Source of the DNA: Eukaryota sp. GEM-RC1
Taxonomy: Eukaryota
Assembly (NCBI GenBank): GCA_040285855.1
Contig: JAUFOQ010000013.1
Span: forward strand, 1,674,001-1,738,000
Reading direction: 5' to 3'
DNA: 64,000 nucleotides
Below are positions 6,486 to 59,607 of the stretch, piece by piece (position 1 is the first letter of the stretch; each line of letters begins with the position of its first letter). The translations under genes were made by a program, and so were the position numbers. Below the pieces are notes generated by a model. It worked only from the letters and a program-made list of their open reading frames with translations. It was not told the origin of the DNA and ran no database searches.

Positions 6486-8238
6486 TTAAAAATACATTCT
6501 ATTTTTGTGTAGTGATTTTAACGACTGTTGTGTTTGACTGTTGATTGAGTTGTTATTAAGATAAATCGTAGAAACTGAAGAATTTACCTTCAAAGCTTCA
6601 GCAATTGTAATAGCTCCTTCAAGACCAATTGAGTTGGTCCATAGATAAATCTCAGAAACTGAAGAATTCACCTTCAAAGCTTCAGCAATTGTAATAGCTC
6701 CTTCAAGACCAATTGAGTTGTTATCTAGATCGATCCTAGAAACTGAAGAATTCACCTTCAAAGCTTCAGCAATTATAATAGCTCCTTCAGGACCAATTGA
6801 GTTGAAACCTAGACCAATCGTAGAAACTGCAGAATTCACCTTCAAAGCTTCAGCAATTGCAATAGCTCCTTCAGGACCAATTGAGTTGTGCCTTAGATCG
6901 ATGTAAGAAACTGAAGAATTCACCTTCAAAGCTTCAGCAATTGCAATAGCCCCTTCATTACCAATTGAGTTGTAACCTAGATAAATCTCAGAAACTGAAG
7001 AATTCACCTTCAAAGCTTCAGCAATTGCAATAGCCCCTTCATTACCAATTGAGTTGTAACCTAGATAAATCTCAGAAACTGAAGAATTCAACTTCAAAGC
7101 TTCAGCAATTGCAATAGCACCTTCAGGACCAATTGAGTTGTTATATAGATAAATCGTAGAAACTGAAGAATTCACCTTCAAAGCTTCAGCAATTGCAATA
7201 GCTCCTTCATTACCAATTGAGTTGTGCCTTAGATCGATCGTAGAAACTAAAGAATTCACCTTCAAAGCTTCAGCAATCGCAATAGCTCCTTCATTACCAA
7301 TTGAGTTTTCAGCTAGATAAATCTCAGAAACTGAAGAATTCACCTTCAAAGCTTCAGCAATTGCAATAGCTCCTTCATTACCAATTGAGTTGTTCCATAG
7401 ATAAATCTCAGAAACTGAAGAATTCACCTTCAAAGCTTCAGCAATTGCAATAGCTCCTTCATTACCAATTGAGTTGTTATCTAGATGGATCGTAGAAACT
7501 GAAGAATTCACCTTCAAAGCTTCAGCAATTGCAATAGCTCCTTCATTACCAATTGAGTTTTCAGCTAGATAAATCTCAGAAACTGAAGAATTCACCTTCA
7601 AAGCTTCAGCAATTGCAATAGCTCCTTCATTACCAATTGAGTTGTTCCATAGATAAATCTCAGAAACTGAAGAATTCACCTTCAAAGCTTCAGCAATTGC
7701 AATAGCTCCTTCATTACCAATTGAGTTGTTCCATAGATAAATCTCAGAAACTGAAGAATTCACCTTCAAAGCTTCAGCAATTGCAATAGCTCCTTCATTA
7801 CCAATTGAGTTGTTATCTAGATAAATCGCAGAAACTGAAGAATTCACCTTCAAAGCTTCAGCAATTGCAATAGCTCCTTCAAGACCAATTGAGTTGTTAT
7901 CTAGATCGATCCTAGAAACCTCATTTCTCACCATTTCATCATAACAATTCTTCAACTTCGAACTAAGCTCGTTCCAATCAATAACAAGCTCCTTCTCTTC
8001 AACTTGTTGTACAAGGCACACACTTTCAATAGACTTGATTGGCGAAGGAGTGTCATCTAGAAGCCTAGCAGAAGCAACATTGGACTCCGAAACAACAGAG
8101 AGAGAGGCCAAACGACGAGAAGCTTCGCAGTGGATAGAGCAAAGTTCTTCATTTAAAGAGGAGATGATAGCAGATTGGTTCTTAAGTAGGGTGGAGGTTG
8201 TGGTAATGAAGTTTTCGCCGATCTTTGGTTTAAAGATT
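6486..8238 (-). pseudogene. 5'-truncated TRIM-LRR paralog (part of coiled-coil/linker plus 17 LRR modules)
   Basis: The IFKPKIGENF...MVRNEV segment is nearly identical to the gene at 18165-20122. Homology stops at ~8238, so RING and B-boxes are absent. An internal ATG at 7934 could give an LRR-only product. Confidence 0.8.
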
Positions 8239-8969
8239 ACACCTCTTTTCAATCTCACCTGTTTCTGTACCTTATCAATAACGTGTTTTGTTTTTAAGAT
8301 ATTCTAGAGAAAAAATATCCAATACTGGGTCGATTAGTTAATTTTACATAAATTACTAAATTTCAGATGTACAAAAAGCGGTTTTGTGTGTTGACACAAA
8401 CACAAAAACTTTTGTTGACAACACCACTACAGTGTACATACATCTAATAATCGATATCCGCAAAGTCCAGATTGCCTATCCGGAAATTCTCCCCTACTTT
8501 GGATAGCCGAAATTGTAATTAACATGTCTATAAACTCTTTCTTCAGATATTAATTGTGCAATTCCTAAAACAATTCTGAACATTAGATTTAAAAAAGCAC
8601 AATCGCAATTTCAATAACATGTACTTGCCTATGTAGAAGCCGCAGAAATTAATTTAACATAACTAGGTCTTCGTAAATTTAACATCGTCATATGTGTTTC
8701 TGCTGTTGACTCCAATATTCAACACAACAAAAGTACCAGTAAATAACGTGTGTTATTCACCAGGGTACGACTTAAAATCTGCACCTGAACACCTGCTAAA
8801 CTACTATGATATTTGACCCTGTCACGGAGTTTTGTTTGGGATAATGGTTGTTCTGAGCTAAATGATTTTTCAAGTGTGTATTATATTCACCGATTAATTA
8901 TTGTACTTTTGATGGGAAATTAATTATGATCAATGACAAATGTGATTTTTTTATACAACGAAAACTTGT

Positions 8970-10418
8970 TTAAAAATACATTCTATTTTTGTGTAGTGAT
9001 TTTAACGACTGTTGTGTTTGACTGTTGATTGAGTTGTTATTAAGATAAATCGTAGAAACTGAAGAATTTACCTTCAAAGCTTCAGCAATTGCAATAGCTC
9101 CTTCAAGACCAATTGAGTTGGTCCATAGATAAATCTCAGAAACTGAAGAATTCACCTTCAAAGCTTCAGCAATTGTAATAGCTCCTTCAAGACCAATTGA
9201 GTTGTTATCTAGATCGATCCTAGAAACTGAAGAATTCACCTTCAAAGCTTCAGCAATTATAATAGCTCCTTCAGGACCAATTGAGTTGAAACCTAGACCA
9301 ATCGTAGAAACTGCAGAATTCACCTTCAAAGCTTCAGCAATTGCAATAGCTCCTTCAGGACCAATTGAGTTGTGCCTTAGATCGATGTAAGAAACTGAAG
9401 AATTCACCTTCAAAGCTTCAGCAATTGCAATAGCCCCTTCATTACCAATTGAGTTGTAACCTAGATAAATCTCAGAAACTGAAGAATTCACCTTCAAAGC
9501 TTCAGCAATTGCAATAGCACCTTCAGGACCAATTGAGTTGTTATATAGATAAATCGTAGAAACTGAAGAATTCACCTTCAAAGCTTCAGCAATTGCAATA
9601 GCTCCTTCATTACCAATTGAGTTGTGCCTTAGATCGATCGTAGAAACTAAAGAATTCACCTTCAAAGCTTCAGCAATTGCAATAGCTCCTTCAGGACCAA
9701 TTGAGTTGCCAGCTAGATGGATCGTGGAAACTGAAGAATTCACCTTCAAAGCTTCAGCAATCGCAATAGCTCCTTCATTACCAATTGAGTTTTCAGCTAG
9801 ATAAATCTCAGAAACTGAAGAATTCACCTTCAAAGCTTCAGCAATTGCAATAGCTCCTTCATTACCAATTGAGTTGTTTCCTAGATAAATCTCAGAAACT
9901 GAAGAATTCACCTTCAAAGCTTCAGCAATTGCAATAGCTCCTTCATTACCAATTGAGTTGTTATCTAGATGGATCGTAGAAACTGAAGAATTCACCTTCA
10001 AAGCTTCAGCAATTGCAATAGCTCCTTCATTACCAATTGAGTTGTTATCTAGATGGATCGTAGAAACTGAAGAATTCACCTTCAAAGCTTCAGCAATTGC
10101 AATAGCTCCTTCATTACCAATTGAGTTTTCAGCTAGATAAATCTCAGAAACTGAAGAATTCACCTTCAAAGCTTCAGCAATTGCAATAGCTCCTTCATTA
10201 CCAATTGAGTTGTTCCATAGATAAATCTCAGAAACTGAAGAATTCACCTTCAAAGCTTCAGCAATTGCAATAGCTCCTTCATTACCAATTGAGTTGTTAT
10301 CTAGATAAATCGCAGAAACTGAAGAATTCACCTTCAAAGCTTCAGCAATTGCAATAGCACCTTCAGGACCAATTGAGTTGTTATATAGATTGATCGTAGA
10401 AACCTCATTTCTCACCAT
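8970..10418 (-). CDS. LRR-only cassette, RI/NLRC3-like 28-aa repeats, 17 modules
   Basis: Intact ORF MVRNEV + 17x28 aa, ending KNRMYF. Confidence 0.7.
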   Translation of the reverse strand: MVRNEVSTINLYNNSIGPEGAIAIAEALKVNSSVSAIYLDNNSIGNEGAIAIAEALKVNSSVSEIYLWNNSIGNEGAIAIAEALKVNSSVSEIYLAENSIGNEGAIAIAEALKVNSSVSTIHLDNNSIGNEGAIAIAEALKVNSSVSTIHLDNNSIGNEGAIAIAEALKVNSSVSEIYLGNNSIGNEGAIAIAEALKVNSSVSEIYLAENSIGNEGAIAIAEALKVNSSVSTIHLAGNSIGPEGAIAIAEALKVNSLVSTIDLRHNSIGNEGAIAIAEALKVNSSVSTIYLYNNSIGPEGAIAIAEALKVNSSVSEIYLGYNSIGNEGAIAIAEALKVNSSVSYIDLRHNSIGPEGAIAIAEALKVNSAVSTIGLGFNSIGPEGAIIIAEALKVNSSVSRIDLDNNSIGLEGAITIAEALKVNSSVSEIYLWTNSIGLEGAIAIAEALKVNSSVSTIYLNNNSINSQTQQSLKSLHKNRMYF

Positions 10419-10775
10419 TTCATCCTCAACAATTGTAATAATGAAACTGTATGTTGGTAATTCGATGGTAAATGTATACTATAAATTAACAATATTTCAG
10501 ATACTAATAAATCGCTGTTGTTGTTGAGAACAATAGCAAGAGCACCAGTAAATAACGTGTGTTATTCACGAGGGTACTTAAAATGTGTACCTGAACATCT
10601 GCTAAACTACTATGATATTTGACTCTGTAGCGGAGTTTTGTTTGGGATAATGTTTGTTCTGAGCAAAATGATTTTTCAAGTGTGCATTACATTCATCGTT
10701 TAATTATGGTGCTTTTGATGAGAAATTAATTATGATTAATGACAAATGTGATTTTTATAAACAATGAAAACTTGT

Positions 10776-11636
10776 TTAAAAAGACATTCTATTTTTGTGT
10801 AGTGATTTTAACGACTGTTGTGTTTGACTGTTGATTGAGTTGTTATCTAGATAAATCGTAGTAACTGAAGAATTCACCTTCAAAGCTTCAGCAATTGCAA
10901 TAGCTCCTTCACTACCAATTGAGTTGTTACCTAGAGAAATCTCAGAAACTGAAGAATTCACCTTCAAAGCTTCAGCAATTGCAATAGCTCCTTCACTACC
11001 AATTGAGTTGTTACCTAGAGAAATCGTAGAAACTGAAGAATTCACCTTCAAAGCTTCAGCAATTGCAATAGCTCCTTCACTACCAATTGAGTTGTTACCT
11101 AGAGAAATCGTAGAAACTGAAGAATTCACCTTCAAAGCTTCAGCAATTGTAATAGCTCCTTCATTACCAATTGAGTTGTTATCTAGATAAATCGTAGAAA
11201 CTGAAGAATTCACCTTCAAAGCTTCAGCAATTGCAATAGCTCCTTCAGGACCAATTGAGTTGTTATCTAGATAAATCGTAGTAACTGAAGAATTCACCTT
11301 CAAAGCTTCAGCAATTGCAATAGCTCCTTCAGGACCAATTGAGTTGTGCCTTAGATAAATCCTAGAAACTGAAGAATTCACCTTCAAAGCTTCAGCAATT
11401 GCAATAGCTCCTTCATTACCAATTGAGTTGTTATCTAGATGGATCGTAGAAACTGAAGAATTCACCTTCAAAGCTTCAGCAATTGCAATAGCTCCTTCAT
11501 TACCAATTGAGTTGTTATCTAGATGGATCGTAGAAACTGAAGAATTCACCTTCAAAGCTTCAGCAATTGCAATTGCTCCTTCAGGACCAATTGAGTTGTT
11601 ATATAGATTGATCGTAGAAACCTCATTTCTCACCAT
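10776..11636 (-). CDS. LRR-only cassette, 10 modules
   Basis: Intact ORF of 286 aa = 6 + 10x28, ending KNRMSF. Confidence 0.7.
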   Translation of the reverse strand: MVRNEVSTINLYNNSIGPEGAIAIAEALKVNSSVSTIHLDNNSIGNEGAIAIAEALKVNSSVSTIHLDNNSIGNEGAIAIAEALKVNSSVSRIYLRHNSIGPEGAIAIAEALKVNSSVTTIYLDNNSIGPEGAIAIAEALKVNSSVSTIYLDNNSIGNEGAITIAEALKVNSSVSTISLGNNSIGSEGAIAIAEALKVNSSVSTISLGNNSIGSEGAIAIAEALKVNSSVSEISLGNNSIGSEGAIAIAEALKVNSSVTTIYLDNNSINSQTQQSLKSLHKNRMSF

Positions 11637-11992
11637 TTCATCTCAACAATTGTAATAATGAAACTGTATGTTGGTAATTCGATGGTAAATGTATACTATA
11701 AATTAACAATATTTCAGATACTAATAAATCTCTGTTGTTGTTGAGAACAATAGCAAGAGCACCAGTAAATAACGTGTGTTATTCACGAGGGTACTTAAAA
11801 TGTGTACCTGAACATCTGCTAAACTACTATGATATTTGACTCTGTAGCGGAGTTTTGTTTGGGATAATGTTTGTTCTGAGCAAAATGATTTTTCAAGTGT
11901 GCATTACATTCATCGTTTAATTATGGTGCTTTTGATGAGAAATTAATTATGATTAATGACAAATGTGATTTTTATAAACAATGAAAACTTGT

Positions 11993-12939
11993 TTAAAAAA
12001 GACATTCTATTTTTGTGTAGTGATTTTAACGACTGTTGTGTTTGACTGTTGATTGAGTTGTTATCTAGATAAATCGTAGTAATTGAAGAATTCACCTTCA
12101 ACGCTTCAGCAATTGCAATAGCTCCTTCATTACCAATTGAGTTGTGCCTTAGATAAATCCTAGAAACTGAAGAATTCACCTTCAAAGCTTCAGCAATTGC
12201 AATAGCTCCTTCATTACCAATTGAGTTGTGCCTTAGATAAATCCTAGAAACTGAAGAATTCACCTTCAAAGCTTCAGCAATTGCAATAGCTCCTTCACTA
12301 CCAATTGAGTTGTTACCTAGAGAAATCTCAGAAACTGAAGAATTCACCTTCAAAGATTCAGCAATTGCAATAGCTCCATCACTACCAATTGAGTTGTTAC
12401 CTAGAGAAATCGTAGAAACTGAAGAATTCACCTTCAAAGCTTCAGCAATTGCAATAGCTCCTTCACTACCAATTGAGTTGTTATCTAGATAAATCGTAGT
12501 AACTGAAGAATTCACCTTCAAAGCTTCAGCAATTGCAATAGCTCCTTCAGGACCAATTGAGTTGTTATCTAGATAAATCGTAGTAACTGAAGAATTCACC
12601 TTCAAAGCTTCAGCAATTGCAATAGCTCCTTCAGGACCAATTGAGTTGTGCCTTAGATAAATCCTAGAAACTGAAAAAATTCACATTCAAAGCTTCAGCA
12701 ATTGCAATAGCTCCTTCATTACCAATTGAGTTGTTATCTAGATGGATCGTAGAAACTGAAGAATTCACCTTCAAAGCTTCAGCAATTGCAATAGCTCCTT
12801 CATTACCAATTGAGTTGTTATCTAGATGGATCGTAGAAACTGAAGAATTCACCTTCAAAGCTTCAGCAATTGCAATTGCTCCTTCAGGACCAATTGAGTT
12901 GTTATATAGATTGATCGTAGAAACCTCATTTCTCACCAT
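11993..12939 (-). pseudogene. LRR-only cassette, 11 modules, frameshifted
   Basis: Frameshift at ~12675 (GAAAAAATTCACATT versus consensus GAAGAATTCACCTT), plus an extra A in the terminal homopolymer. Confidence 0.7.
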
Positions 12940-13245
12940 TTCATCTCAACAATTGTAATAATGAAACTGTATGTTGGTAATTCGATGGTAAATGTATACT
13001 ATAAATTAACAATATTTCAGATACTAATAAATCTCTGTTGTTGTTGAGAACAATAGCAAGAGCACCAGTAAATAACGTGTGTTATTCACGAGGGTACTTA
13101 AAATGTGTACCTGAACATCTGCTAAACTACTATGATATTTGACTCTGTAGCGGAGTTTTGTTTGGGATAATGTTTGTTCTGAGCAAAATGATTTTTCAAG
13201 TGTGCATTACATTCATCGTTTAATTATGGTGCTTTTGATGAGAAA

Positions 13246-14157
13246 TTAATTATGATTAATGACAAATGTGATTTTTATAAACAATGAAAACTTGTTTAAA
13301 AAAGACATTCTATTTTTGTGTAGTGATTTTAACGACTGTTGTGTTTGACTGTTGATTGAGTTGTTATCTAGATAAATCGTAGTAATTGAAGAATTCACCT
13401 TCAACGCTTCAGCAATTGCAATAGCTCCTTCATTACCAATTGAGTTGTGCCTTAGATAAATCCTAGAAACTGAAGAATTCACCTTCAAAGCTTCAGCAAT
13501 TGCAATAGCTCCTTCACTACCAATTGAGTTGTTACCTAGAGAAATCTCAGAAACTGAAGAATTCACCTTCAAAGCTTCAGCAATTGCAATAGCTCCTTCA
13601 CTACCAATTGAGTTGTTACCTAGAGAAATCGTAGAAACTGAAGAATTCACCTTCAAAGCTTCAGCAATTGCAATAGCTCCTTCAGGACCAATTGAGTTGT
13701 TATCTAGATAAATCGTAGTAACTGAAGAATTCACCTTCAAAGCTTCAGCAATTGCAATAGCTCCTTCAGGACCAATTGAGTTGTTATCTAGATAAATCGT
13801 AGTAACTGAAGAATTCACCTTCAAAGCTTCAGCAATTGCAATAGCTCCTTCAGGACCAATTGAGTTGTGCCTTAGATAAATCCTAGAAACTGAAGAATTC
13901 ACCTTCAAAGCTTCAGCAATTGCAATAGCTCCTTCATTACCAATTAAGTTGTTATCTAGATGGATCGTAGAAACTGAAGAATTCACCTTCAAAGCTTCAG
14001 CAATTGCAATAGCTCCTTCATTACCAATTGAGTTGTTATCTAGATGGATCGTAGAAACTGAAGAATTCACCTTCAAAGCTTCAGCAATTGCAATTGCTCC
14101 TTCAGGACCAATTGAGTTGTTATATAGATTGATCGTAGAAACCTCATTTCTCACCAT
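13246..14157 (-). CDS. LRR-only cassette, 10 modules (C-terminus extended 17 aa by a homopolymer +1)
   Basis: 303-aa ORF; TTTAAAAAAGAC here versus TTTAAAAAGAC in sister copies. Confidence 0.65.
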   Translation of the reverse strand: MVRNEVSTINLYNNSIGPEGAIAIAEALKVNSSVSTIHLDNNSIGNEGAIAIAEALKVNSSVSTIHLDNNLIGNEGAIAIAEALKVNSSVSRIYLRHNSIGPEGAIAIAEALKVNSSVTTIYLDNNSIGPEGAIAIAEALKVNSSVTTIYLDNNSIGPEGAIAIAEALKVNSSVSTISLGNNSIGSEGAIAIAEALKVNSSVSEISLGNNSIGSEGAIAIAEALKVNSSVSRIYLRHNSIGNEGAIAIAEALKVNSSITTIYLDNNSINSQTQQSLKSLHKNRMSFLNKFSLFIKITFVINHN

Positions 14158-14513
14158 TTCATCTCAACAATTGTAATAATGAAACTGTATGTTGGTAATT
14201 CGATGGTAAATGTATACTATAAATTAACAATATTTCAGATACTAATAAATCTCTGTTGTTGTTGAGAACAATAGCAAGAGCACCAGTAAATAACGTGTGT
14301 TATTCACGAGGGTACTTAAAATGTGTACCTGAACATCTGCTAAACTACTATGATATTTGACTCTGTAGCGGAGTTTTGTTTGGGATAATGTTTGTTCTGA
14401 GCAAAATGATTTTTCAAGTGTGCATTACATTCATCGTTTAATTATGGTGCTTTTGATGAGAAATTAATTATGATTAATGACAAATGTGATTTTTATAAAC
14501 AATGAAAACTTGT

Positions 14514-15794
14514 TTAAAAAGACATTCTATTTTTGTGTAGTGATTTTAACGACTGTTGTGTTTGACTGTTGATTGAGTTGTTATCTAGATAAATCGTAGT
14601 AATTGAAGAATTCACCTTCAAAGCTTCAGCAATTGCAATAGCTCCTTCACTACCAATTGAGTTGTGCCTTAGATAAATCTCAGAAACTGAAGAATTCACC
14701 TTCAAAGCTTCAGCAATTGCAATAGCTCCTTCACTACCAATTGAGTTGTTACCTAGAGAAATCGTAGTAACTGAAGAATTCACCTTCAAAGCTTCAGCAA
14801 TTGCAATAGCTCCTTCATTACCAATTGAGTTGTGCCTTAGATAAATCCTAGAAACTGAAGAATTCACCTTCAAAGCTTCAGCAATTGCAATAGCTCCTTC
14901 ACTACCAATTGAGTTGTTACCTAGAGAAATCGTAGAAACTGAAGAATTCACCTTCAAAGCTTCAGCAATTGCAATAGCTCCTTCAGGACCAATTGAGTTT
15001 TCAGCTAGATAAATCTCAGAAACTGAAGAATTCACCTTCAAAGCTTCAGCAATTGCAATAGCTCCTTCATTACCAATTGAGTTGTTATCTAGATCGATCC
15101 TAGAAACTGAAGAATTCACCTTCAAAGCTTCAGCAATTGCAATAGCTCCTTCACTACCAATTGAGTTGTTACCTAGAGAAATCGTAGAAACTGAAGAATT
15201 CACCTTCAAAGCTTCAGCAATTGTAATAGCTCCTTCATTACCAATTGAGTTGTTATCTAGATAAATCGTAGAAACTGAAGAATTCACCTTCAAAGCTTCA
15301 GCAATTGCAATAGCTCCTTCAGGACCAATTGAGTTGTTATCTAGATAAATCGTAGTAACTGAAGAATTCACCTTCAAAGCTTCAGCAATTGCAATAGCTC
15401 CTTCATTACCAATTGAGTTGTGCCTTAGATAAATCCTAGAAACTGAAGAATTCACCTTCAAAGCTTCAGCAATTGCAATAGCTCCTTCATTACCAATTGA
15501 GTTGTGCCTTAGATAAATCCTAGAAACTGAAGAATTCACCTTCAAAGCTTCAGCAATTGCAATAGCTCCTTCACTACCAATTGAGTTGTTACCTAGAGAA
15601 ATCTCAGAAACTGAAGAATTCACCTTCAAAGCTTCAGCAATTGCAATAGCTCCTTCACTACCAATTGAGTTGTTACCTAGAGAAATCGTAGAAACTGAAG
15701 AATTCACCTTCAAAGCTTCAGCAATTGCAATTGCTCCTTCAGGACCAATTGAGTTGTTATATAGATTGATCGTAGAAACCTCATTTCTCACCAT
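14514..15794 (-). CDS. LRR-only cassette, 15 modules
   Basis: Intact ORF of 426 aa = 6 + 15x28. Confidence 0.7.
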   Translation of the reverse strand: MVRNEVSTINLYNNSIGPEGAIAIAEALKVNSSVSTISLGNNSIGSEGAIAIAEALKVNSSVSEISLGNNSIGSEGAIAIAEALKVNSSVSRIYLRHNSIGNEGAIAIAEALKVNSSVSRIYLRHNSIGNEGAIAIAEALKVNSSVTTIYLDNNSIGPEGAIAIAEALKVNSSVSTIYLDNNSIGNEGAITIAEALKVNSSVSTISLGNNSIGSEGAIAIAEALKVNSSVSRIDLDNNSIGNEGAIAIAEALKVNSSVSEIYLAENSIGPEGAIAIAEALKVNSSVSTISLGNNSIGSEGAIAIAEALKVNSSVSRIYLRHNSIGNEGAIAIAEALKVNSSVTTISLGNNSIGSEGAIAIAEALKVNSSVSEIYLRHNSIGSEGAIAIAEALKVNSSITTIYLDNNSINSQTQQSLKSLHKNRMSF

Positions 15795-16150
15795 TTCATC
15801 TCAACAATTGTAATAATGAAACTGTATGTTGGTAATTCGATGGTAAATGTATACTATAAATTAACAATATTTCAGATACTAATAAATCTCTGTTGTTGTT
15901 GAGAACAATAGCAAGAGCACCAGTAAATAACGTGTGTTATTCACGAGGGTACTTAAAATGTGTACCTGAACATCTGCTAAACTACTATGATATTTGACTC
16001 TGTAGCGGAGTTTTGTTTGGGATAATGTTTGTTCTGAGCAAAATGATTTTTCAAGTGTGCATTACATTCATCGTTTAATTATGGTGCTTTTGATGAGAAA
16101 TTAATTATGATTAATGACAAATGTGATTTTTATAAACAATGAAAACTTGT

Positions 16151-17179
16151 TTAAAAAGACATTCTATTTTTGTGTAGTGATTTTAACGACTGTTGTGTTT
16201 GACTGTTGATTGAGTTGTTATCTAGATAAATCGTAGTAATTGAAGAATTCACCTTCAAAGCTTCAGCAATTGCAATAGCTCCTTCATTACCAATTGAGTT
16301 GTGCCTTAGATAAATCCTAGAAACTGAAGAATTCACCTTCAAAGCTTCAGCAATTGCAATAGCTCCTTCATTACCAATTGAGTTGTGCCTTAGATAAATC
16401 CTAGAAACTGAAGAATTCACCTTCAAAGCTTCAGCAATTGCAATAGCTCCTTCACTACCAATTGAGTTGTTACCTAGAGAAATCTCAGAAACTGAAGAAT
16501 TCACCTTCAAAGCTTCAGCAATTGCAATAGCTCCTTCACTACCAATTGAGTTGTTACCTAGAAAAATCTCAGAAACTGAAGAATTCACCTTCAAAGCTTC
16601 AGCAATTGCAATAGCTCCTTCACTACCAATTGAGTTGTTACCTAGAGAAATCGTAGAAACTGAAGAATTCACCTTCAAAGCTTCAGCAATTGTAATAGCT
16701 CCTTCATTACCAATTGAGTTGTTATCTAGATAAATCGTAGAAACTGAAGAATTCACCTTCAAAGCTTCAGCAATTGCAATAGCTCCTTCAGGACCAATTG
16801 AGTTGTTATCTAGATAAATCGTAGTAACTGAAGAATTCACCTTCAAAGCTTCAGCAATTGCAATAGCTCCTTCAGGACCAATTGAGTTGTGCCTTAGATA
16901 AATCCTAGAAACTGAAGAATTCACCTTCAAAGCTTCAGCAATTGCAATAGCTCCTTCATTACCAATTGAGTTGTTATCTAGATGGATCGTAGAAACTGAA
17001 GAATTCACCTTCAAAGCTTCAGCAATTGCAATAGCTCCTTCATTACCAATTGAGTTGTTATCTAGATGGATCGTAGAAACTGAAGAATTCACCTTCAAAG
17101 CTTCAGCAATTGCAATAGCTCCTTCAGGACCAATTGAGTTGTTATATAGATTGATCGTAGAAACCTCATTTCTCACCAT
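16151..17179 (-). CDS. LRR-only cassette, 12 modules
   Basis: Intact ORF of 342 aa = 6 + 12x28. Confidence 0.7.
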   Translation of the reverse strand: MVRNEVSTINLYNNSIGPEGAIAIAEALKVNSSVSTIHLDNNSIGNEGAIAIAEALKVNSSVSTIHLDNNSIGNEGAIAIAEALKVNSSVSRIYLRHNSIGPEGAIAIAEALKVNSSVTTIYLDNNSIGPEGAIAIAEALKVNSSVSTIYLDNNSIGNEGAITIAEALKVNSSVSTISLGNNSIGSEGAIAIAEALKVNSSVSEIFLGNNSIGSEGAIAIAEALKVNSSVSEISLGNNSIGSEGAIAIAEALKVNSSVSRIYLRHNSIGNEGAIAIAEALKVNSSVSRIYLRHNSIGNEGAIAIAEALKVNSSITTIYLDNNSINSQTQQSLKSLHKNRMSF

Positions 17180-17485
17180 TTCATCTCAACAATTGTAATA
17201 ATGAAACTGTATGTTGGTAATTCGATGGTAAATGTATACTATAAATTAACAATATTTCAGATACTAATAAATCTCTGTTGTTGTTGAGAACAATAGCAAG
17301 AGCACCAGTAAATAACGTGTGTTATTCACGAGGGTACTTAAAATGTGTACCTGAACATCTGCTAAACTACTATGATATTTGACTCTGTAGCGGAGTTTTG
17401 TTTGGGATAATGTTTGTTCTGAGCAAAATGATTTTTCAAGTGTGCATTACATTCATCGTTTAATTATGGTGCTTTTGATGAGAAA

Positions 17486-17809
17486 TTAATTATGATTAAT
17501 GACAAATGTGATTTTTATAAACAATGAAAACTTGTTTAAAAAAGACATTCTATTTTTGTGTAGTGATTTTAACGACTGTTGTGTTTGACTGTTGATTGAG
17601 TTGTTATCTAGATAAATCGTAGTAACTGAAGAATTCACCTTCAAAGCTTCAGCAATTGCAATAGCTCCTTCATTACCAATTGAGTTGTTATCTAGATGGA
17701 TCGTAGAAACTAAAGAATTCACCTTCAAAGCTTCAGCAATTGCAATTGCTCCTTCAGGACCAATTGAGTTGTTATATAGATTGATCGTAGAAACCTCATT
17801 TCTCACCAT
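17486..17809 (-). CDS. LRR-only cassette, 3 modules
   Basis: Short ORF with the same start and C-terminal cap as its sisters. Confidence 0.55.
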   Translation of the reverse strand: MVRNEVSTINLYNNSIGPEGAIAIAEALKVNSLVSTIHLDNNSIGNEGAIAIAEALKVNSSVTTIYLDNNSINSQTQQSLKSLHKNRMSFLNKFSLFIKITFVINHN

Positions 17810-18115
17810 TTCATCTCAACAATTGTAATAATGAAACTGTATGTTGGTAATTCGATGGTAAATGTATACTATAAATTAACAATATTTCAGATACTAATAA
17901 ATCTCTGTTGTTGTTGAGAACAATAGCAAGAGCACCAGTAAATAACGTGTGTTATTCACGAGGGTACTTAAAATGTGTACCTGAACATCTGCTAAACTAC
18001 TATGATATTTGACTCTGTAGCGGAGTTTTGTTTGGGATAATGTTTGTTCTGAGCAAAATGATTTTTCAAGTGTGCATTACATTCATCGTTTAATTATGGT
18101 GCTTTTGATGAGAAA

Positions 18116-20122
18116 TTAATTATGATTAATGACAAATGTGATTTTTATAAACAATGAAAACTTGTTTAAAAAAGACATTCTATTTTTGTGTAGTGATTTT
18201 AACGACTGTTGTGTTTGACTGTTGATTGAGTTGTTATCTAGATAAATCGTAGTAATTGAAGAATTCACCTTCAAAGCTTCAGCAATTGCAATAGCTCCTT
18301 CACTACCAATTGAGTTGTGCCTTAGATAAATCTCAGAAACTGAAGAATTCACCTTCAAAGCTTCAGCAATTGCAATAGCTCCTTCACTACCAATTGAGTT
18401 GTTACCTAGAGAAATCGTAGTAACTGAAGAATTCACCTTCAAAGCTTCAGCAATTGCAATAGCTCCTTCATTACCAATTGAGTTGTGCCTTAGATAAATC
18501 CTAGAAACTGAAGAATTCACCTTCAAAGCTTCAGCAATTGCAATAGCTCCTTCACTACCAATTGAGTTGTTACCTAGAGAAATCGTAGAAACTGAAGAAT
18601 TCACCTTCAAAGCTTCAGCAATTGCAATAGCTCCTTCAGGACCAATTGAGTTGTTATCTAGATCGATCCTAGAAACTGAAGAATTCACCTTCAAAGCTTC
18701 AGCAATTGCAATAGCTCCTTCACTACCAATTGAGTTGTTACCTAGAGAAATCGTAGAAACTGAAGAATTCACCTTCAAAGCTTCAGCAATTGTAATAGCT
18801 CCTTCATTACCAATTGAGTTGTTATCTAGATAAATCGTAGAAACTGAAGAATTCACCTTCAAAGCTTCAGCAATTGCAATAGCTCCTTCAGGACCAATTG
18901 AGTTGTTATCTAGATAAATCGTAGTAACTGAAGAATTCACCTTCAAAGCTTCAGCAATTGCAATAGCTCCTTCAGGACCAATTGAGTTGTGCCTTAGATA
19001 AATCCTAGAAACTGAAGAATTCACCTTCAAAGCTTCAGCAATTGCAATAGCTCCTTCATTACCAATTGAGTTGTTATCTAGATCGATCCTAGAAACCTCA
19101 TTTCTCACCATTTCATCATAACAATTCTTCAACTTCGAACTAAGCTTGCTCCAATCAATAACAAGCTCCTTCTCTTCAACTTGTTGTACAAGGCACGCAC
19201 TTTCAATAGACTTGATTGGCGAAGGAGTGTCATCTAGAAGCCTAGCAGAAGCAACATTGGACTCCGAAACAACGGAAAGAGAGGCCAAACGACGAGAAGC
19301 TTCGGAGTGAATAGAGCAAAGTTCTTCATTTAAAGAGGAGATGATAGCGGATTGGTTGTTAAGTAGGGTGGAAGTTGTGGTAATGAAGTTTTCGCCGATC
19401 TTTGGTTTAAAGATAACAGGCTTACCTGATTTTAAGTCATTCATGATGGTAACAGAGTCTAACATAGTTTCTTGCAGCATATCAGTTAGAGTTTCTTTCA
19501 TTTGAGCAAATCCAGATGCCGCTTGTTGGAGAGCATTTTCTGTACACTTTCCGACGGTTTCTACAGCAACAGCTAGTTCTTGATTGATGGCATTAATGCC
19601 ATGTTCTACAGCAGATCTTCCTTCGTCAAACGGAAGCAAATTCTTCTTGTGCTGGTCGTGGTCCCCAAGGATAGCACAAATTGAGCAAAGCGCAACAGAA
19701 CAAGAAGTACAGAAGAGGTCAAAGGATTTGGACGGATGGATCGGACATTTAGGCACAATGGAGGCGTGTTTCTTTTGCAGCGGAATTGCAACGTGGGTAC
19801 GTAAGAGTTTCGGCCGATGAATGTCCTTAAAACATTGGTCGCATAAATCAGCGTCACATTCTGCGCAATAACAAGTGGCAACAGCTTCATCACACTCAAT
19901 ACAAATAGACTCACCCTGACCAGCAACGAAGGCTTCAACAGCTTCTTTCAACTTGTAGTTAGGACACAGCCTTGACTTGTCCACTTCAGCTCTACAAATT
20001 GGACATCCGTCATGAGAAACAAGCCACTCCTGTAAATCCGACATACAAAAGGTGTGGCCACACCAAGTAGTTACCGGATTCTTGAGAATTTCATGACATA
20101 TATCACATAGATAGTGAGACAT
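18116..20122 (-). CDS. TRIM-like protein: RING, B-box, B-box, coiled coil, 11 LRR modules (putative E3 ubiquitin ligase)
   Basis: RING CDICHEILKNPVTTWCGHTFC...CPICR; B-box1 CIECDE..ATCYCAECDADLCDQCFKDIH...H; B-box2 CPIHP...LFCTSCSVALCSICAILGDHDQH; then a helical segment and LRRs. The true stop may be at ~18165 if the A-run is one base too long. Confidence 0.92.
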   Translation of the reverse strand: MSHYLCDICHEILKNPVTTWCGHTFCMSDLQEWLVSHDGCPICRAEVDKSRLCPNYKLKEAVEAFVAGQGESICIECDEAVATCYCAECDADLCDQCFKDIHRPKLLRTHVAIPLQKKHASIVPKCPIHPSKSFDLFCTSCSVALCSICAILGDHDQHKKNLLPFDEGRSAVEHGINAINQELAVAVETVGKCTENALQQAASGFAQMKETLTDMLQETMLDSVTIMNDLKSGKPVIFKPKIGENFITTTSTLLNNQSAIISSLNEELCSIHSEASRRLASLSVVSESNVASARLLDDTPSPIKSIESACLVQQVEEKELVIDWSKLSSKLKNCYDEMVRNEVSRIDLDNNSIGNEGAIAIAEALKVNSSVSRIYLRHNSIGPEGAIAIAEALKVNSSVTTIYLDNNSIGPEGAIAIAEALKVNSSVSTIYLDNNSIGNEGAITIAEALKVNSSVSTISLGNNSIGSEGAIAIAEALKVNSSVSRIDLDNNSIGPEGAIAIAEALKVNSSVSTISLGNNSIGSEGAIAIAEALKVNSSVSRIYLRHNSIGNEGAIAIAEALKVNSSVTTISLGNNSIGSEGAIAIAEALKVNSSVSEIYLRHNSIGSEGAIAIAEALKVNSSITTIYLDNNSINSQTQQSLKSLHKNRMSFLNKFSLFIKITFVINHN

Positions 20123-24300: not shown

Positions 24301-27300
24301 TTTCTATGGAATAACGGCAGTCCTCCTAGATACAGTTGAATATCAATTTTGAGCTCTTTTTCACGTGATGAGCAGAAGTCAAAAGAAGTCTTTGCAGCAA
24401 TGTAACTCATATAAGCCCCAAGATTAGTATATTTACGGATTTCTTATCAAAATTTAAAAACTGCATTAGATTCGAATCAAGTTTCTCCATGATCAATGAA
24501 AATTAAAATTTGAAAAGGTCCATAACAGATTCTTTGGAAAAAGCGTTGCCAAGAAGAAAGTCTAGCTAAGCCAATTTCAATCGGTCATACTTGGAAGTAC
24601 ATATCCAATTGAAAAACTCTAAAATGTTTGAAATATCAAATTCAACACAGTTTTGTTAGTGAAAAAGACCAAAAAATCGATCCAAAAACATTTTCAAATA
24701 TACCCAAAAATTGATTAGAACATTCAAGACAAATTGGATGTCAAATCGACAAATTGACAAATAAATGCAGATGTAAACAAGTACCAAAAATGAATCAACT
24801 AATCAAACTTCAATTTTATATACGTGTTTTTAAAAGACACCCACCCGTATTTAGGGCAAGATTCTAAAATTTAAAATTAACTGTTTTGGATACATTTCAA
24901 TTTGTTTCACAAGCCTTCTGTCATTCTCTCAGTGACAAACTCACTTGCTGGAACTGAAGAAGAGAAGGAATGATGCAAAGCATACTGACATTTTCAGGAG
25001 TAAAGAGTTGACAGGACTGAAAAGAAGATATCATTTAGAAGATGGGCAGAAATGTACTAAGTTGATGTCAGATAGGTATTTTTGTACCCAAACCCTAAAT
25101 TATATTATATTTGCCTGATAACATTCCACATAATTTGAAATGCCAATGTGGGCAATCAGTAATACATACACATTTATTAAATTGCAACCGTTTTATTTCT
25201 TTTAGATGCAAGGTTCATGATTCAGTAAGGGATCAATTATATTGTGTGTGTGATCTTTAGTAAACTAACAGATGAACAAATTTTAATTTTCTAAGTTTTC
25301 AATGATTGCAAAGGATTCATCTTGATATCCGTGATCCCACTGATTTCTGGCTTTTTAATTTTTGAATTGCGTTTAAAAAACTGTTTAAACTGTTCTTTGT
25401 TCCTCATAAAGATATCCTCCGTCAATTCCAACAGAAAAGCAAACACACCAGACATACCAGCTACAGTACCAAGAACTGTCCCTGCTAAGGTCATAAAGGT
25501 ACGTGATGCAGACCTATCAGTCATTAATGCTAAAGAGAATGAATGGAACTGAAACTCCACTTTAAAACCAGTAGCGTGGTGGAATTGAGTGTTAGAGACA
25601 ACAGAACCTGCAGAAGCAGATTCAAATCGAAGGTGATATCCTGTATTAGAATTGGAGGGTTCAACATTGTCAGTGAAGACAGAAGGAATTAACTCGTATG
25701 AAAACACACTAGGATTATTCCCTTTCAAAACCATATTCTGAGGAGCACTCACTGAAGAAGAGATGTTAGAGAAGGCGTTAGGAAGTGAAGCAAATGTTGA
25801 AATGTTAACAGCGACTGCATTGGCGTACGATGCTTCGTTGTTTGATTGGATAGAAAGTGAACTGATTGAGTTAGTTAACTGACAATCAAAATCAACTGAA
25901 ATGAGACACGAATCAACAGAAGTTCCATCACCTATTGATGACGTGATGGTTGCCGGACAATCCACACCATTAGTTTGCAGAACAAACGACTCATTGGAAC
26001 AACCAGTTGAATATCCTTGAAATTCTATAACAAAGAAACCATGAAAAGTAAAGTTTTTGGGTGTTAAAAAAGCTGGTTCTAAAGTTCGAGTATAAGAAAT
26101 ATTGTCATATTGATATTCGAAAAACAAACTGCTTGTCATGAATAGAAGTCCTGCTATAAATAACCATGAATAAAATCCTCCTAGTTTAGTTTCTCGTTGG
26201 ATAATTGGTTGGTTGTTTTCGGTATAATGACTTTGATTAAAAAAAATCAAAATATCTAAAGAATGGTCCTTCACTTATGAAAACGGAAGCAATAATTAAC
26301 AGCGTCACAGCCAGAATCAGCAAATACAGAGCAATTGTTGAATATTCTTCTAGTTTTGCTAGTTGAGACGGTGGAAGTTCGGGTTGTTCTGAAATAAAAT
26401 CTACCGTTGCATCCTCGCTTGAAAGTGGAACAACACTTCCAACAGGGCAATACTTATCCTCTGGGCATGGTTCACAGTGAGAAGAACCATAGTTAGGATT
26501 ATAAGTAGAGAAAGGACATGGGATGCATGACTCAAATCCATTTCCACCAATGAAATCACTGAAAAAACCAGGATCACAAGGTCTGCAACTAGTGCCATTG
26601 CTTGAATAAACACCATAAAGCCCATTCTCACAGGCAACGCAACCTCCAAGCTCATCAGCAGCACTACCAATAAAGCAATCAAATTCGCAATCAATAATCA
26701 GAAAATCAGAACAGGTCAGATTCATGATTGCAATTGCTGATAAAGGAGATGCTGGTGATCGCTCCCTGGGGATATGAGAATTACCAACATACCTCACAAC
26801 TAAGTTTTGAAATGCAACTACGGTATAATCAGTATCAGTAAAGAAATCATTATCATTAATGATTCCAAACGTGATACGGGAATCTTCAGTTTCCAATTTG
26901 GGAATACTGAAGAAATTTGTGATCCTAGGGATAAACTCTCTATCATGACCACCAAAAATTAAAATGTTATTACCGAACTGAATTAAGTTGAAGGTGTGTA
27001 CCTGGTTTCGGAATCTAAAAGGTTGGTAAAACCATCTTTTTGATTAGAACCATCACGTGTTAAGCTATCAGGAGATATTTTCCATAGGTAGGTTTGATTG
27101 ACGTTGCGTGAATCATCCCGACCCCCAATCAGCATGACGTATGGATCATCAGTTTGGGCAACTAGAAGAGAACACCGATCCATTGGAGGAGGCCAGACTT
27201 CCTCTGACGTTTGAGAGATTTGAGTCCACCTGCCGGTCTGAAGATTGAGTGAGTAGAGCTCAGAAGAACGTGACGAAGCAGTGGCACCTCCGTAAACTAT

Positions 27301-28677
27301 TAAAGAATGTTCATACAATGAACAACAAGCATAAGAACGAGGACTTGGAGGTGATCCTTCAGTGACAAACCAAGTAAACTCTCGTGACACGTGGTAAAAA
27401 AAAGATGACGTCATTGGTGAGATCAGAAGTTGAAACAGTTTCCCCTCCAAATTGAACAATTCTAGTACCATATACAACGCTACAATGACCAACACGGAGT
27501 GGTGGTGCATAAGAGCTTTGAACTTCTAGATAATTCCAAGAATACGTCATCAAGTCAAAATGATAGACATTCATATCACGTATATCACGAGAAAACGGAC
27601 GACTTCCTCCAAGTACAAACATCTTTGTTCCAACTACAACTGATGAGTGACCAAATGTCCTTGGCGGAGTCGTTATTGAAGGAGATACAAGGTTAAAGTC
27701 AGCATAGGTAGGTGTCATATCTAACAATTCAGGATCGAACTCCAAAATAGAATTCTCTACTTGATCAAAGTAATCACCACCAAACAGATACAGTTTATCA
27801 TTGATAACAAACGGAGTAGAACTAGAGTCCAGTCTAAACATTGAACCATCTCTTCTCATTCTAAGCTGATCCCATGTCCAAGTTGAGATGTTGTTGTCAT
27901 TAGTTGAAAGAACTTGTAGGATAGCAAAGTTAGCAACAAAGGGGTAAGTTGTAGCTATACCCCAACCTCCAAAGATGAGAAGCTTTTGATTAATGAAAAG
28001 TAAGAATCTGAAATTCTTGTTGGTGCACCCGTAATTATGTCAGTTATATTTTCATAAAGAGAATATACTGAAAGTAAACTGTCATTTAACAAGTCAATCT
28101 CTACTGTTGCAATCCAGGTATGAAAATCATAACTAACTACCAAAGCTCTCAGAGTAAACACGTGTGGTGACGTTTCAACCATGGACTGTACCACCATGTT
28201 TGCACCTTTGCGTCCCACTTCTAGTTCAATGTCTGATAGAGTCTTGACTTCATAAAAAGTAAGAGTTTCAAAGTCAAACAGCCATAAAGCTGAGGTAGGT
28301 GTAGGTATATAAGGGGAAGTAAGAGCAGGAAGTGTAAGCACGAGAGCAAACTCGTGATCATTCAAAGAGAACTGGAAACAAGAAAGTAAAGCACGCAGAG
28401 GAAGTTGTTGGCCTTGTGGAGGGGTAGATCGCCAACAAAGAGACTCGAAACTCCAGATATAGATATCAGTAGAAGGAGCGTTGTTCAGTTCTCCACCGAA
28501 TTGAATTATTTGAGACTTATAGTGCCACAGACAACCTCCAGAAGGTGGTAATGTACCAGCAGAGGGATATTGAAGCCAGAACTTAGAGCTCTCGGTTCAA
28601 GGAATTAAAGACCAGTCTGGTGAAGAAACCATAATTCAAAGAGATCGTCATCATGTTGGTCAATGCCACCCCAGAAG

Positions 28678-30652: not shown

Positions 30653-31261
30653 TTAAAAATACATTCTATTTTTGTGTAGTGATTTTAACGACTGTTGTGT
30701 TTGACTGTTGATTGAGTTTTCAGCTAGATCGATCCTAGAAACTGAAGAATTCACCTTCAACGCTTCAGCAATTGCAATAGCTCCTTCATTACCAATTGAG
30801 TTTTCAGCAAGATCGATCCTAGAAACTGAAGAATTCACCTTCAAAGCTTCAGCAATTGCAATAGCTCCTTCATTACCAATTGAGTTGACACCTAGATAAA
30901 TCTCAGAAACTGAAGAATTCACCTTCAAAGCTTCAGCAATTGCAATAGCTCCTTCATTACCAATTGAGTTGTTATTTAGATAAATCGTAGAAACTGAAGA
31001 ATTCACCTTCAAAGCTTCAGCAATTGCAATAGCCCCTTCATTACCAATTGAGTTGTTATCTAGATAAATCGTAGAAACTGAAAAATTCACCTTCAAAGCT
31101 TCAGCAATCGCAATAGCTTCTTCAACACCAATTGAGTTGAAACCTAGATGAATCGTAGAAACTGAATAATTTACCTTCAAAGCTTCAGCCATTGCAATAG
31201 CTCCTTCAGTACCAATTGAGTTGTTATATAGATTGATCGTAGAACTCTCATTTCTCAACAT
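30653..31261 (-). CDS. Dispersed, more diverged LRR-only cassette, 7 modules
   Basis: 202 aa = 6 + 7x28. Flanks 29724-30650 and 31262-31345 match the array spacers. Confidence 0.7.
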   Translation of the reverse strand: MLRNESSTINLYNNSIGTEGAIAMAEALKVNYSVSTIHLGFNSIGVEEAIAIAEALKVNFSVSTIYLDNNSIGNEGAIAIAEALKVNSSVSTIYLNNNSIGNEGAIAIAEALKVNSSVSEIYLGVNSIGNEGAIAIAEALKVNSSVSRIDLAENSIGNEGAIAIAEALKVNSSVSRIDLAENSINSQTQQSLKSLHKNRMYF

Positions 31262-31344
31262 TTCGTCTCAACAATTTTAATAATGAAACTGTACATAGGT
31301 AATTCGATGGTAAATGTACAGTATCATTTAACAATAATTCTGAT

Positions 31345-44121: not shown

Positions 44122-44210
44122 TAAAATTTGATATGGACTAGCAGACAGTGAATTTCATTTCAAATCAATATCACTGGAACCTTTCATTCACCTTCTAATA
44201 AATCGTACTT

Positions 44211-59520: not shown

Positions 59521-59607
59521 TGAAGAAGACGAATTAGTACTGGAACTCAAGAATCCAAGAGATGAAAACTGTTGTTCAATTTTTGTTCACAGAATTTACA
59601 AGTCTTC

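Follow-up and report, generated by a model that had tools for sequence, protein, structure and literature searches.

Among the described systems closest to the locus studied here are the fungal NLR receptors with high internal conservation (HIC), exemplified by the HNWD genes het-d and het-e of Podospora. Published accounts describe near-identical repeats under concerted evolution, three to five binding-surface codons under positive selection, exchange of repeats inside a locus as well as from one locus to another, and pseudogenes that retain intact repeats (Paoletti 2007, PMC1805685; Dyrka 2014, PMC4986451; PMC13449251). For the ROCO-LRR genes of Ectocarpus, shuffled LRR modules with a positively selected concave face are reported, and surplus LRR copies are proposed as a reservoir (Zambounis 2012, PMC3341825). 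The locus of Eukaryota sp. GEM-RC1 shares with the fungal receptors the near-identical repeats, the few selected surface codons and the repeat exchange, and with Ectocarpus the shuffled LRRs, the surface selection and the spare LRR copies. Scaffold homogenisation combined with diversifying selection is already established for both of these groups of immune-type receptors. The present locus extends this evolutionary mode to a metamonad, from a lineage in which defence has received little study. It also brings in a new chassis, a TRIM-like ligase that bears an LRR array at the place of the SPRY-like domain of related proteins. What may be new is that such repeats make up the target-binding tail of a ligase of this type and have a bank of LRR-only blocks beside them. 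On balance, we favour a reading in which a TRIM-like ligase has an LRR target arm, recombination keeps the scaffold uniform and selection favours new surface residues.

Gene A (18116..20122, minus strand) is an intronless ORF of 668 aa whose exact product is collection protein P0006; one additional T in a T-run abolishes the stop usual in the family and lengthens the product by 17 residues. This product is composed of a RING, two successive B-boxes, a predicted coiled coil, a linker, 11 RI-like LRR units and a C-cap. The N-terminal RING finger (19994..20107, minus strand) scores above its Pfam cut-off (zf-C3HC4, 29.2 bits against 21; U-box, 40.3 bits) and carries Asp at the sixth zinc-ligand position, which is His in the paralogues P0003 and P0004. 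Two B-box zinc fingers follow (19646..19903, minus strand; zf-B_box, 49.8 bits, two stretches), the first of which scores 22.7 bits as an ANCHR-like B-box, under the cut-off of 27. Long helices of a predicted coiled coil come next (19280..19630, minus strand; AlphaFold helices at residues 164-219, 222-230 and 243-280), with a local pLDDT of 45-82 in an N-terminal model whose mean of only 55 denotes low confidence. Residues 38-162 match TRIM28 in an alignment spanning both B-boxes (E 1.2e-10), residues 124-231 match TRIM3 (E 4.3e-10), and the head also matches TRIM25 and TRIM21. The N-terminal half of the product is 99% identical to a protein of Skoliomonas sp. GEM-RC; identity to P0001 reaches 99% across the 340 N-terminal residues, yet only one of the nine modules of P0001 is present in gene A.

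This order of RING, two B-boxes and predicted coiled coil, followed by a variable C-terminal domain, is that of TRIM/RBCC ligases, in which the C-terminal domain binds the substrate according to the available part of the source (PMC5758549). The difference lies in that domain, which in gene A is an LRR array (18218..19093, minus strand) of 11 units without private substitutions. Since a relative whose head is the same, P0249 (E 8.5e-24), has a SPRY-like domain at its end (191 features shared in the Atlas, score 0.96), the LRR array occupies the place of the TRIM target-binding domain. SPRY was not detected by Pfam, down to E 0.1, in three RBCC relatives, and was found in the one submitted to the Atlas feature search. 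We know of no LRR class among the tails of animal TRIM proteins, and a further 146 proteins whose head is related yielded no RI-like LRR, while five of five positive controls scored. The array is likely the target-binding arm of a putative TRIM-like ubiquitin ligase, and the product of gene A is likely a sensor that tags with ubiquitin, in an anaerobic protist of free-living habit. Should it indeed act as a ligase, this would be a natural receptor coupling a recombining binding surface straight to degradation. In the Atlas, clusters that combine a B-box with LRRs of another type, all scoring below 0.9, constitute leads.

The architecture sets the locus apart from both systems. Fungal NLRs carry WD40, ANK or TPR repeats on a NACHT or NB-ARC core, whereas here RI-like LRRs are borne by a RING, B-box and coiled-coil head without NTPase domain, and repeat-only blocks stand in tandem; a Pfam scan of genes A and C and of two LRR-only blocks returned neither NACHT nor NB-ARC, which define NLR (STAND) proteins. 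The LRRs of Ectocarpus are single exons of 24 residues, shuffled through introns on a ROCO GTPase, in contrast to the 28-residue units and intronless fusion found here.

The preliminary description dealt only with the repeat units of the range 8970..19110, missing both the head of gene A and the organisation in blocks. This range comprises eight arrays with non-coding spacers between them rather than one array, and holds 89 units of 84 nt, all on the minus strand (80 full units of 28 codons, eight first units beginning at the strand, and one frameshifted), instead of the estimated 100 or so; 113 units occur in the window, the whole stretch of 64,000 nucleotides analysed. Eleven units belong to gene A and the other 78 to seven head-to-tail LRR-only blocks. 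With codons numbered from the E of EGAIA, the near-invariant scaffold stood, at 21 rather than about 22 of 28 codons with a majority codon in at least 90% of the 80 full units, among which 11 of 28 codons are fully invariant. The variable codons are 18, 20, 22, 23 and 28, and the residues listed for them agree exactly with the unit alignment. That variation was confined to these codons proved mostly correct and slightly overstated: codon 17 is S or T (62+1 and 17 units), 17 of the 80 full units carry a synonymous variant of codon 19, and codons 5, 15 and 16 show rarer changes. The multi-base changes are mostly apparent, more than one base being needed in only five of 26 allele links.

The LRR-only blocks follow gene A on the same strand: block 1 (17486..17809; 3 units from ATG to stop, identical to collection protein P0233), block 2 (16151..17179; 12 units), block 3 (14514..15794; 15 units), block 4 (13246..14157; 10 units), block 5 (11943..12939; 11 units, one of 85 nt, with a frameshift near 12680 in an A-run), block 6 (10776..11636; 10 units) and block 7 (8970..10418; 17 units), their number and order being those of one assembly. 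Block 3 is mosaic, its head being of block type and its tail that of gene A, and includes one module that elsewhere belongs to the gene C-type arrays; in block 7, the first unit is of block type, and the remaining units and the 3' flank are of gene C type. Gene C itself (6486..8241, minus strand) is a 5'-truncated paralogue without RING or B-boxes, reduced to the end of the coiled coil, the linker and 17 LRR units, and 96% identical to gene A over 278 nt. An inter-array segment of 439 nt (C-cap, about 355 nt of non-coding DNA, N-cap) occurs seven times on the minus strand (17779..18217, 17149-17587, 15764-16201, 14127-14564, 12909-13347, 11606-12044 and 10388-10826) and connects the 3' flank of gene A with the beginning of the LRR domain. 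Six copies differ only by the length of one T-run, and the seventh has in addition one substitution and one inserted base; the run counts six T in four copies and five in three. An older LRR-only block (30653..31261, minus strand; 7 units, five private amino-acid changes) has the same junction and flanks at 88-92% identity. A single duplication would have fused the 3' flank of the gene to the start of its LRR domain, and the resulting LRR-only block would then have been amplified in tandem. Alternative splicing from gene A into the blocks gains no support from the junction AG, whose phase in block 7 differs from that in the other six.

Six of the seven blocks retain both caps and an uninterrupted frame between ATG and stop, and may for that reason be genes and not a silent pool. 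They would then be expressed as free-standing LRR sensors or decoys, with amplification serving dosage and diversity, in keeping with the confidently predicted fold of block 7, with the one protein called in the collection among the seven LRR-only ORFs looked up, and with the annotated paralogues that lack RING and B-boxes (P0040, P0089, P0164). We find this unlikely, as the spacers are too recent for an intact frame to signify selection, one block is frameshifted, and the DNA upstream of the blocks is a copy of the 3' flank, not of the gene A promoter. Private changes are moreover nearly all non-synonymous: scaffold singletons count 8 non-synonymous to 1 synonymous, against 6 to 8 for shared variants (p=0.04), and seven of the eight non-synonymous singletons sit in LRR-only blocks, gene A having none, although sequencing errors could account for singletons. 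Selection on the blocks is likely weak, and they would serve gene A as a passive store of variant units; the seven repeat-only copies likely trade units with it.

A more active role would bring the blocks close to the lamprey VLR and the vlsE of Borrelia, cassette systems where incomplete silent donors lie beside one expression site and conversion runs one way in somatic or clonal lineages. The seven blocks do adjoin the sole complete gene, directly downstream of it, and hold modules that gene A lacks; their junction takes in the entire LRR domain and recurs in the older, 88%-identical copy, and rearrangement outpaces substitution. That they are silent donors feeding gene A by directed gene conversion, with receptors diversified from clone to clone, is nevertheless rather improbable. 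The blocks come with an ATG, caps, a stop and a 3' flank of their own, and they differ from each other where donors are expected to be stable. The nine recurring strand/loop module labels of gene A lie in the same runs in the blocks (at most five exact units), which plain duplication from gene A would yield, and the direction of transfer is unreadable from one sequence. We are just as doubtful of anticipatory intracellular immunity, in which a TRIM-type ligase would have its SPRY-like domain replaced by an LRR array gene-converted clonally from seven donor cassettes. If true, it would represent a unicellular counterpart to the VLR assembly of lampreys, coupled without intermediary to protein degradation.

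No two arrays share the same unit order, though the 439-nt spacers are near-identical: the eight arrays are 2-17 unit edits apart, and six spacers are without substitution. Near-identical spacers with differing unit orders indicate that unit shuffling is faster than point mutation, for which the spacers provide an internal clock. Identical neighbours are found in 12 of 103 cases, against 4.0 in shuffles. Sites also reassort inside the unit. The four-gamete test fails between codons 18, 20, 22 and 28 (13 of 25 site pairs for codons 18 and 22, 16 of 20 for codons 22 and 28), while codons 22-23 travel together (no failure in 30), and the 41 distinct units give a consistency index of 0.52. One exact 84-nt unit is common to five type-1 blocks and both gene C-type arrays. 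These inter-array units and the four-gamete failures reveal the exchange of repeats within and between loci that characterises HIC receptors, and paralogues on other contigs display the same reassortment.

A fungal study states that such domains need long reads for their reconstruction (PMC13449251). The T-run that varies among copies and the frameshift in an A-run are what long-read errors would give. We still hold it very unlikely that assembly and polishing of a tandem repeat created the block array or the mosaic units, since recombinant modules recur across several separate arrays, paralogues on other contigs reassort in the same way, the chimeric block 7 has a gene C-type flank, the old diverged block has the same junction, and artefacts would not favour codon positions 1 and 2. 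The mechanism we propose takes as given the architecture, the predicted fold, the five-codon excess, the reassortment within units and the differing unit orders. Recombination among near-identical units likely maintains the uniformity of the scaffold; unequal crossing-over and gene conversion between out-of-register units would add, drop and swap units and generate mosaic ones.

Selection was assessed with each codon allele counted once and with per-codon minimum-step counts, because within-unit recombination violates a tree-based codon model. The five codons carry 28 of 37 amino-acid steps. An even spread along the unit, which the preliminary description had named as the pattern that would contradict it, is rejected, the best five codons reaching at most 26 in 200,000 simulations. 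Non-synonymous and synonymous steps number 28 and 3 at the five codons, against 9 and 9 elsewhere (omega about 4.2 and 0.32), so that, as in HIC receptors, a few interface codons diversify and the rest is under purifying selection; at these five, amino-acid change exceeds the synonymous rate by a factor of about 4-10. The null of omega=1, corrected for the post-hoc choice of sites, gives P=0.005. The x positions of LxxLxLxxNxL, chosen a priori, have 26 non-synonymous steps (p=1.3e-4 against all 12 synonymous steps), a significance that rests on pooling a mere 12 synonymous steps from units that are not independent; within the five codons alone the test is not significant (p=0.09). Between genes A and C, pN at the five sites reaches 0.49, for a pS of 0.077 in the non-repeat linker and 0.037 within units, and a pN of 0.004 at positions 1, 4, 7, 8, 11, 12 and 14 on the linker and helix side. 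Their 3' flanks have 23 mismatches in 247 nt, which sets an external clock of 0.08-0.09. Some modules may predate the split of the two genes, as long-kept alleles rather than fast change. The proposal of scaffold homogenisation with diversifying selection is supported by the step counts, by omega and by this comparison.

Could recent duplication alone have left a uniform scaffold, with surface sites that are unconstrained or a local mutation hotspot? Solvent-facing x positions are variable in most LRR proteins, short palindromes occur within the variable stretch, and the within-codon test falls short as noted. Such neutrality is highly improbable in view of the corrected omega=1 null and the external clock, of a piN of 0.40 at the five codons against a piS of 0.06 at the same codons and 0.04 overall, and of the interleaved codons 19, 21 and 24, which encode the same amino acid in each of the 113 units. 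As variable and invariant codons alternate, template switching at palindromes was set aside as the principal cause. Diversity-generating retroelements possess a template repeat and a dedicated RT, and make adenine-only changes. Suggested by the fixed third bases, such an element was discarded: other third bases at codons 18, 22 and 23 exclude A-only change from one template, synonymous A sites are not raised, and the only RT among the scanned ORFs sits with RNase H and integrase. Under the favoured reading of a selected target arm, the selecting ligands would likely be rapidly changing proteins of foreign origin (prey bacteria, symbionts or viruses), and the putative ligase would tag them with ubiquitin.

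The AlphaFold model of block 7 (pLDDT 90.5) alternates strand and helix, and the best fold matches are protein-binding ribonuclease inhibitors (TM 0.78-0.82, the top one at 0.82 with E 2e-21); together with the 84-nt period, this places the units in the RI-like class of 28-residue LRRs. In the model the strand consists of codons 18-20, codons 22-23 lie in the next loop and codon 28 in the first helix turn, side-chain direction being deduced from LRR geometry and secondary structure. The location of the variable sites on a ligand-binding beta-sheet thus agrees with the model for two of the five, and disagrees for codons 22 and 23 (loop) and 28 (helix turn). Acidic residues equal or outnumber basic ones at the four strand and loop sites in ten of ten arrays, in itself weak evidence about the ligand. 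The LRR is 43% identical to one of NLRC3, which reportedly binds DNA.

TAL effectors are built of helical repeats of about 34 residues with one variable di-residue in a loop, each repeat reading one base, and a programmable code loosely like theirs had been envisaged here. Under it, each unit type would read one ligand element, such as a base, and unit order would spell the target. The likeness consists of discrete modules on a near-identical scaffold, reused in varied orders, of the adjacent loop pair at codons 22-23, whose joint inheritance is the only RVD-like trait, and of the resemblance to NLRC3. Sharing of modules beyond the locus was examined on proteins: among 60 named GEM-RC proteins returned by searches, seven have the same scaffold, and two of their 33 distinct modules recur among the window's 26 (two of 32 as four-residue words). 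The code is scarcely credible, given the different fold and length (28-residue beta-alpha LRRs), five freely recombining sites instead of two, an open vocabulary (26 five-residue words in 81 units) where TAL effectors have a small closed one, best fold matches that bind protein, the acidic bias, and the same positions being most variable in unrelated eukaryotes.

Other LRR families were compared as well, namely the LGR of Protochlamydia (PMC2216083), the RING/F-box-LRR proteins of Neochlamydia (PMC4209131) and the 90-bp exon LRRs of Tetrahymena (PMC6564038). The chlamydial families join E3-type domains to LRRs (PMC2216083, PMC4209131), and the portions of the papers available on these LRR expansions contain no report of an RBCC head with LRR-only tandem blocks. 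NLRC3-like or RI-like LRRs of 28 residues are expanded further in Capsaspora, Mortierellaceae and Chrysochromulina, and in other GEM-RC genes, and codons 18, 20, 22 and 23 are among the most variable in all five groups compared. A uniform scaffold with the five sites variable was found in 26 of 149 scored proteins. The scaffold described here lies at the extreme, with a difference of 0.02-0.03 against a cut-off of 0.15, and this difference, with 21 of 28 codons at least 90% fixed, places the repeats above the 85% identity that distinguishes HIC receptors.

The minus strand of the region carries several tandem arrays of an 84-nt unit, and the repeat feature at 8970–19110 is real. Anchoring on the conserved NSIG/NSIN codons, we called 113 units across the window, of which 89 fall within this range (80 complete 28-codon units, 8 first units and 1 frameshifted). 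With codons numbered from the E of EGAIA, the majority codon reaches at least 90% at 21 of the 28 codons, 11 being invariant, and amino-acid entropy is 1.3–2.0 bits at codons 18, 20, 22, 23 and 28. Codon 17 follows with 0.75 bits, and no other codon exceeds 0.43. The preliminary description had proposed such a near-invariant scaffold with few variable codons, and the residue sets that it listed are those we find. More than one base is needed in only 5 of 26 allele links, so that its multi-base differences are mostly accumulated single changes.

The first array is the 3' end of gene A (20122–18116, minus strand), whose 668-residue product combines a RING with a pair of B-boxes, long helices (predicted), a disordered linker and 11 LRR units closed by a cap. 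Over its N-terminal 340 residues it shares 99% identity with GEMRC1_012661, a protein of Eukaryota sp. GEM-RC1, to which all four matches of the search belong. PMC11316075 gives this organism the name Skoliomonas sp. GEM-RC and describes it as a metamonad that is free-living and bacterivorous; the window presumably derives from it or from a nearly identical organism. Seven LRR-only blocks follow downstream on the same strand, with 3, 12, 15, 10, 11, 10 and 17 units in turn, and after them gene C (8241–6486, minus strand), a paralogue without RING and B-boxes. Every block begins at a junction where the LRR domain's N-cap is fused to roughly 390 nt derived from the 3' end and flank of the family, and an older LRR-only block (31261–30653, minus strand) carries this junction too, at 88% identity. 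A stretch of 86 nt in the 3' flank of the LRR gene, at about 8414–8500, has two further copies (45407–45492 and 53173–53260; 83–90% identity) and is a possible small dispersed element. The family is modular, with head-only forms and LRR forms devoid of RING and B-boxes among proteins P0004, P0005, P0040, P0059, P0089 and P0164. In P0059 a different N-terminal region is fused to the family's LRR tail and cap, and P0005 stops in the coiled coil at about the point where gene C starts.

Because the units are copies of one another, each codon allele was counted once and alleles were joined by the fewest steps, with synonymous paths preferred. This minimum-step count gave 28 non-synonymous and 3 synonymous steps at the five variable codons and 9 of each at the other 23, corresponding to omega values of 4.2 and 0.32 relative to the synonymous rate pooled over all codons. 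When the six x positions of LxxLxLxxNxL are chosen beforehand, omega comes to 3.6 (p=1.3e-4); in pairwise comparison, piN across the five codons reaches 0.40 versus a piS of 0.04–0.06. A null with omega=1 throughout, which allows for uncertainty in the synonymous rate and for picking the five highest codons post hoc, gives P=0.005, but restricting the test to those five codons yields p=0.09, which counts against a selection signal. As homogenisation can erase synonymous differences, genes A and C served as an outside clock: their linker, which lies outside the repeats, has a pS of 0.077 and their 3' flanks differ at 23 of 247 bases, versus a pS of 0.037 overall and a pN of 0.49 at the five codons within the units. 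The proposal of scaffold homogenisation with diversifying selection was right, though this evolutionary mode is already known. Fungal WD40 repeats combine concerted evolution with four selected codons, pseudogenes keeping intact repeats (PMC1805685), and the same mode extends to ANK and TPR repeats (PMC4986451); such repeats, LRRs included, occur across life (5.6% of repeat proteins without ATPase domain; PMC13449251).

The binding face of LRR horseshoes comprises the strand and the strand-to-helix loop. Folding of block 7 by AlphaFold from its single sequence (pLDDT 90.5, pTM 0.85) gave a model whose top fold matches are ribonuclease inhibitors (TM 0.78–0.82); the LRR sequence is 43% identical to an NLRC3 LRR. 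In most units of the model the strand corresponds to codons 18–20, the following loop to codons 22–23 and the first helix turn to codon 28. On this predicted fold, the suggested location of the variable codons on the beta-sheet would therefore apply to codons 18 and 20, but not to 22 and 23 (loop) or 28 (helix turn). The Ectocarpus LRR paper likewise assigns binding to the concave face and describes LRR shuffling with selection there (PMC3341825).

The seven inter-array segments (438–439 nt) differ solely in one T-run, save the last, which also has one substitution and one extra base. The eight arrays are 2 to 17 unit edits apart in pairwise comparison, none being identical. Block 3 is a mosaic of a block-type head and the tail of gene A; in block 7 the first unit is of the block type, whereas the array that follows is of the gene C type. 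Identical units are adjacent in 12 of 103 cases versus 4.0 expected (5,000 shuffles). Within the unit, the four-gamete test on site pairs fails in 13 of 25 for codons 18 and 22, in 6 of 20 for 20 and 22, in 16 of 20 for 22 and 28 and in 0 of 30 for 22 and 23, with a consistency index of 0.52 across 41 distinct units. Scaffold singletons, none of which lies in gene A, comprise 8 non-synonymous and 1 synonymous changes versus 6 and 8 among shared variants (p=0.04), and could be fresh unselected mutations or sequencing errors. The LRR-only blocks may represent a bank with rapid unit turnover, their number being that of one assembly.

A programmable, TALE-like code had also been envisaged, and the sequences do not support this analogy. 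The 81 non-terminal units of the range display 26 five-residue words; seven same-scaffold GEM-RC paralogues hold 44 modules, 33 of them distinct, and 2 of these 33 recur among the 26. In P0001, a paralogue nearly identical to gene A in its N-terminal part, 1 of 9 modules is present in gene A. The alphabet is open and the variable sites recombine, as fits a continuous binding surface rather than one word per ligand element.

To follow the pattern among LRR proteins, we gathered 229 homologues, a set biased by its choice on similarity to the window's array, and scored the 149 with at least 4 internal 28-residue units, leaving out 80 with fewer. In each of the five groups, codons 18, 20, 22 and 23 belong to the seven positions that vary most, and a uniform scaffold with the five variable sites occurs in 26 of the 149 proteins (GEM-RC 7/43, Capsaspora 1/13, Mortierellaceae 2/11, Chrysochromulina 1/4, others 15/78). 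In GEM-RC, related arrays also stand behind other heads, such as BTB and kinase.

The TRIM-like head was searched against 1.84 billion representatives. Among the best 150 of 4,261 relatives, RI-like LRRs were found in 0 of 146 further proteins, with five positive controls scoring strongly; one of these 146, P0249, has a SPRY-like C-terminal domain by Atlas features (0.96), a Pfam scan for SPRY giving no match. Clusters with B-boxes and another LRR type appear as Atlas leads scoring <0.9, so B-box–LRR fusions are probably not unique. The literature searched, with most subscription journals outside it, yielded no prior account of the locus or of any RBCC-LRR gene, and 'leucine-rich' and 'LRR' are absent from the main text of PMC11316075, whose supplements could list the family. 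Comparison families are the Tetrahymena 90-bp exon LRRs (PMC6564038), the Protochlamydia LGR proteins (PMC2216083) and the Neochlamydia RING/F-box-LRR families, which couple E3-type domains to LRRs (PMC4209131); in TRIM proteins the C-terminal domain is substrate-binding (PMC5758549). The locus adds a predicted TRIM-like chassis accompanied by a bank of LRR-only blocks with apparently fast unit turnover.

Elsewhere in the window, a broken TnpB/Fanzor-like nuclease gene (31303–32918, plus strand, several frames) starts where the spacer homology of the older LRR-only block stops (31345); it has a Pfam Cas12f1-like TNB domain (E 5e-8, 32664–32915, stop read as X) and RuvC-like motifs judged by eye. 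Remains of a Gypsy-like LTR retrotransposon (34542–41021, minus strand) retain domains for RT, RNase H and integrase, each in a different frame. A protein kinase followed by Sel1 repeats (41786–44137, minus strand) contains a 108-nt tandem array of 7 copies with 86% matches, several units being near-identical, and is possibly a second homogenised repeat sensor. A long gene for a kelch-repeat/ephrin-receptor-like cysteine-rich membrane protein (25291–28596, minus strand) is spread over five frames through introns, decay or assembly indels. Housekeeping genes encode a lariat debranching enzyme-like phosphoesterase (55570–56781, minus strand), KIN17 (58591–59586, minus strand) and a glycogen/starch phosphorylase in pieces (61918–63242, plus strand). 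The N-terminal half of the glycine cleavage P-protein forms a separate ORF (47925–49127, plus strand; Pfam GDC-P, E 2.5e-101), of interest in a lineage described with extremely reduced mitochondria.
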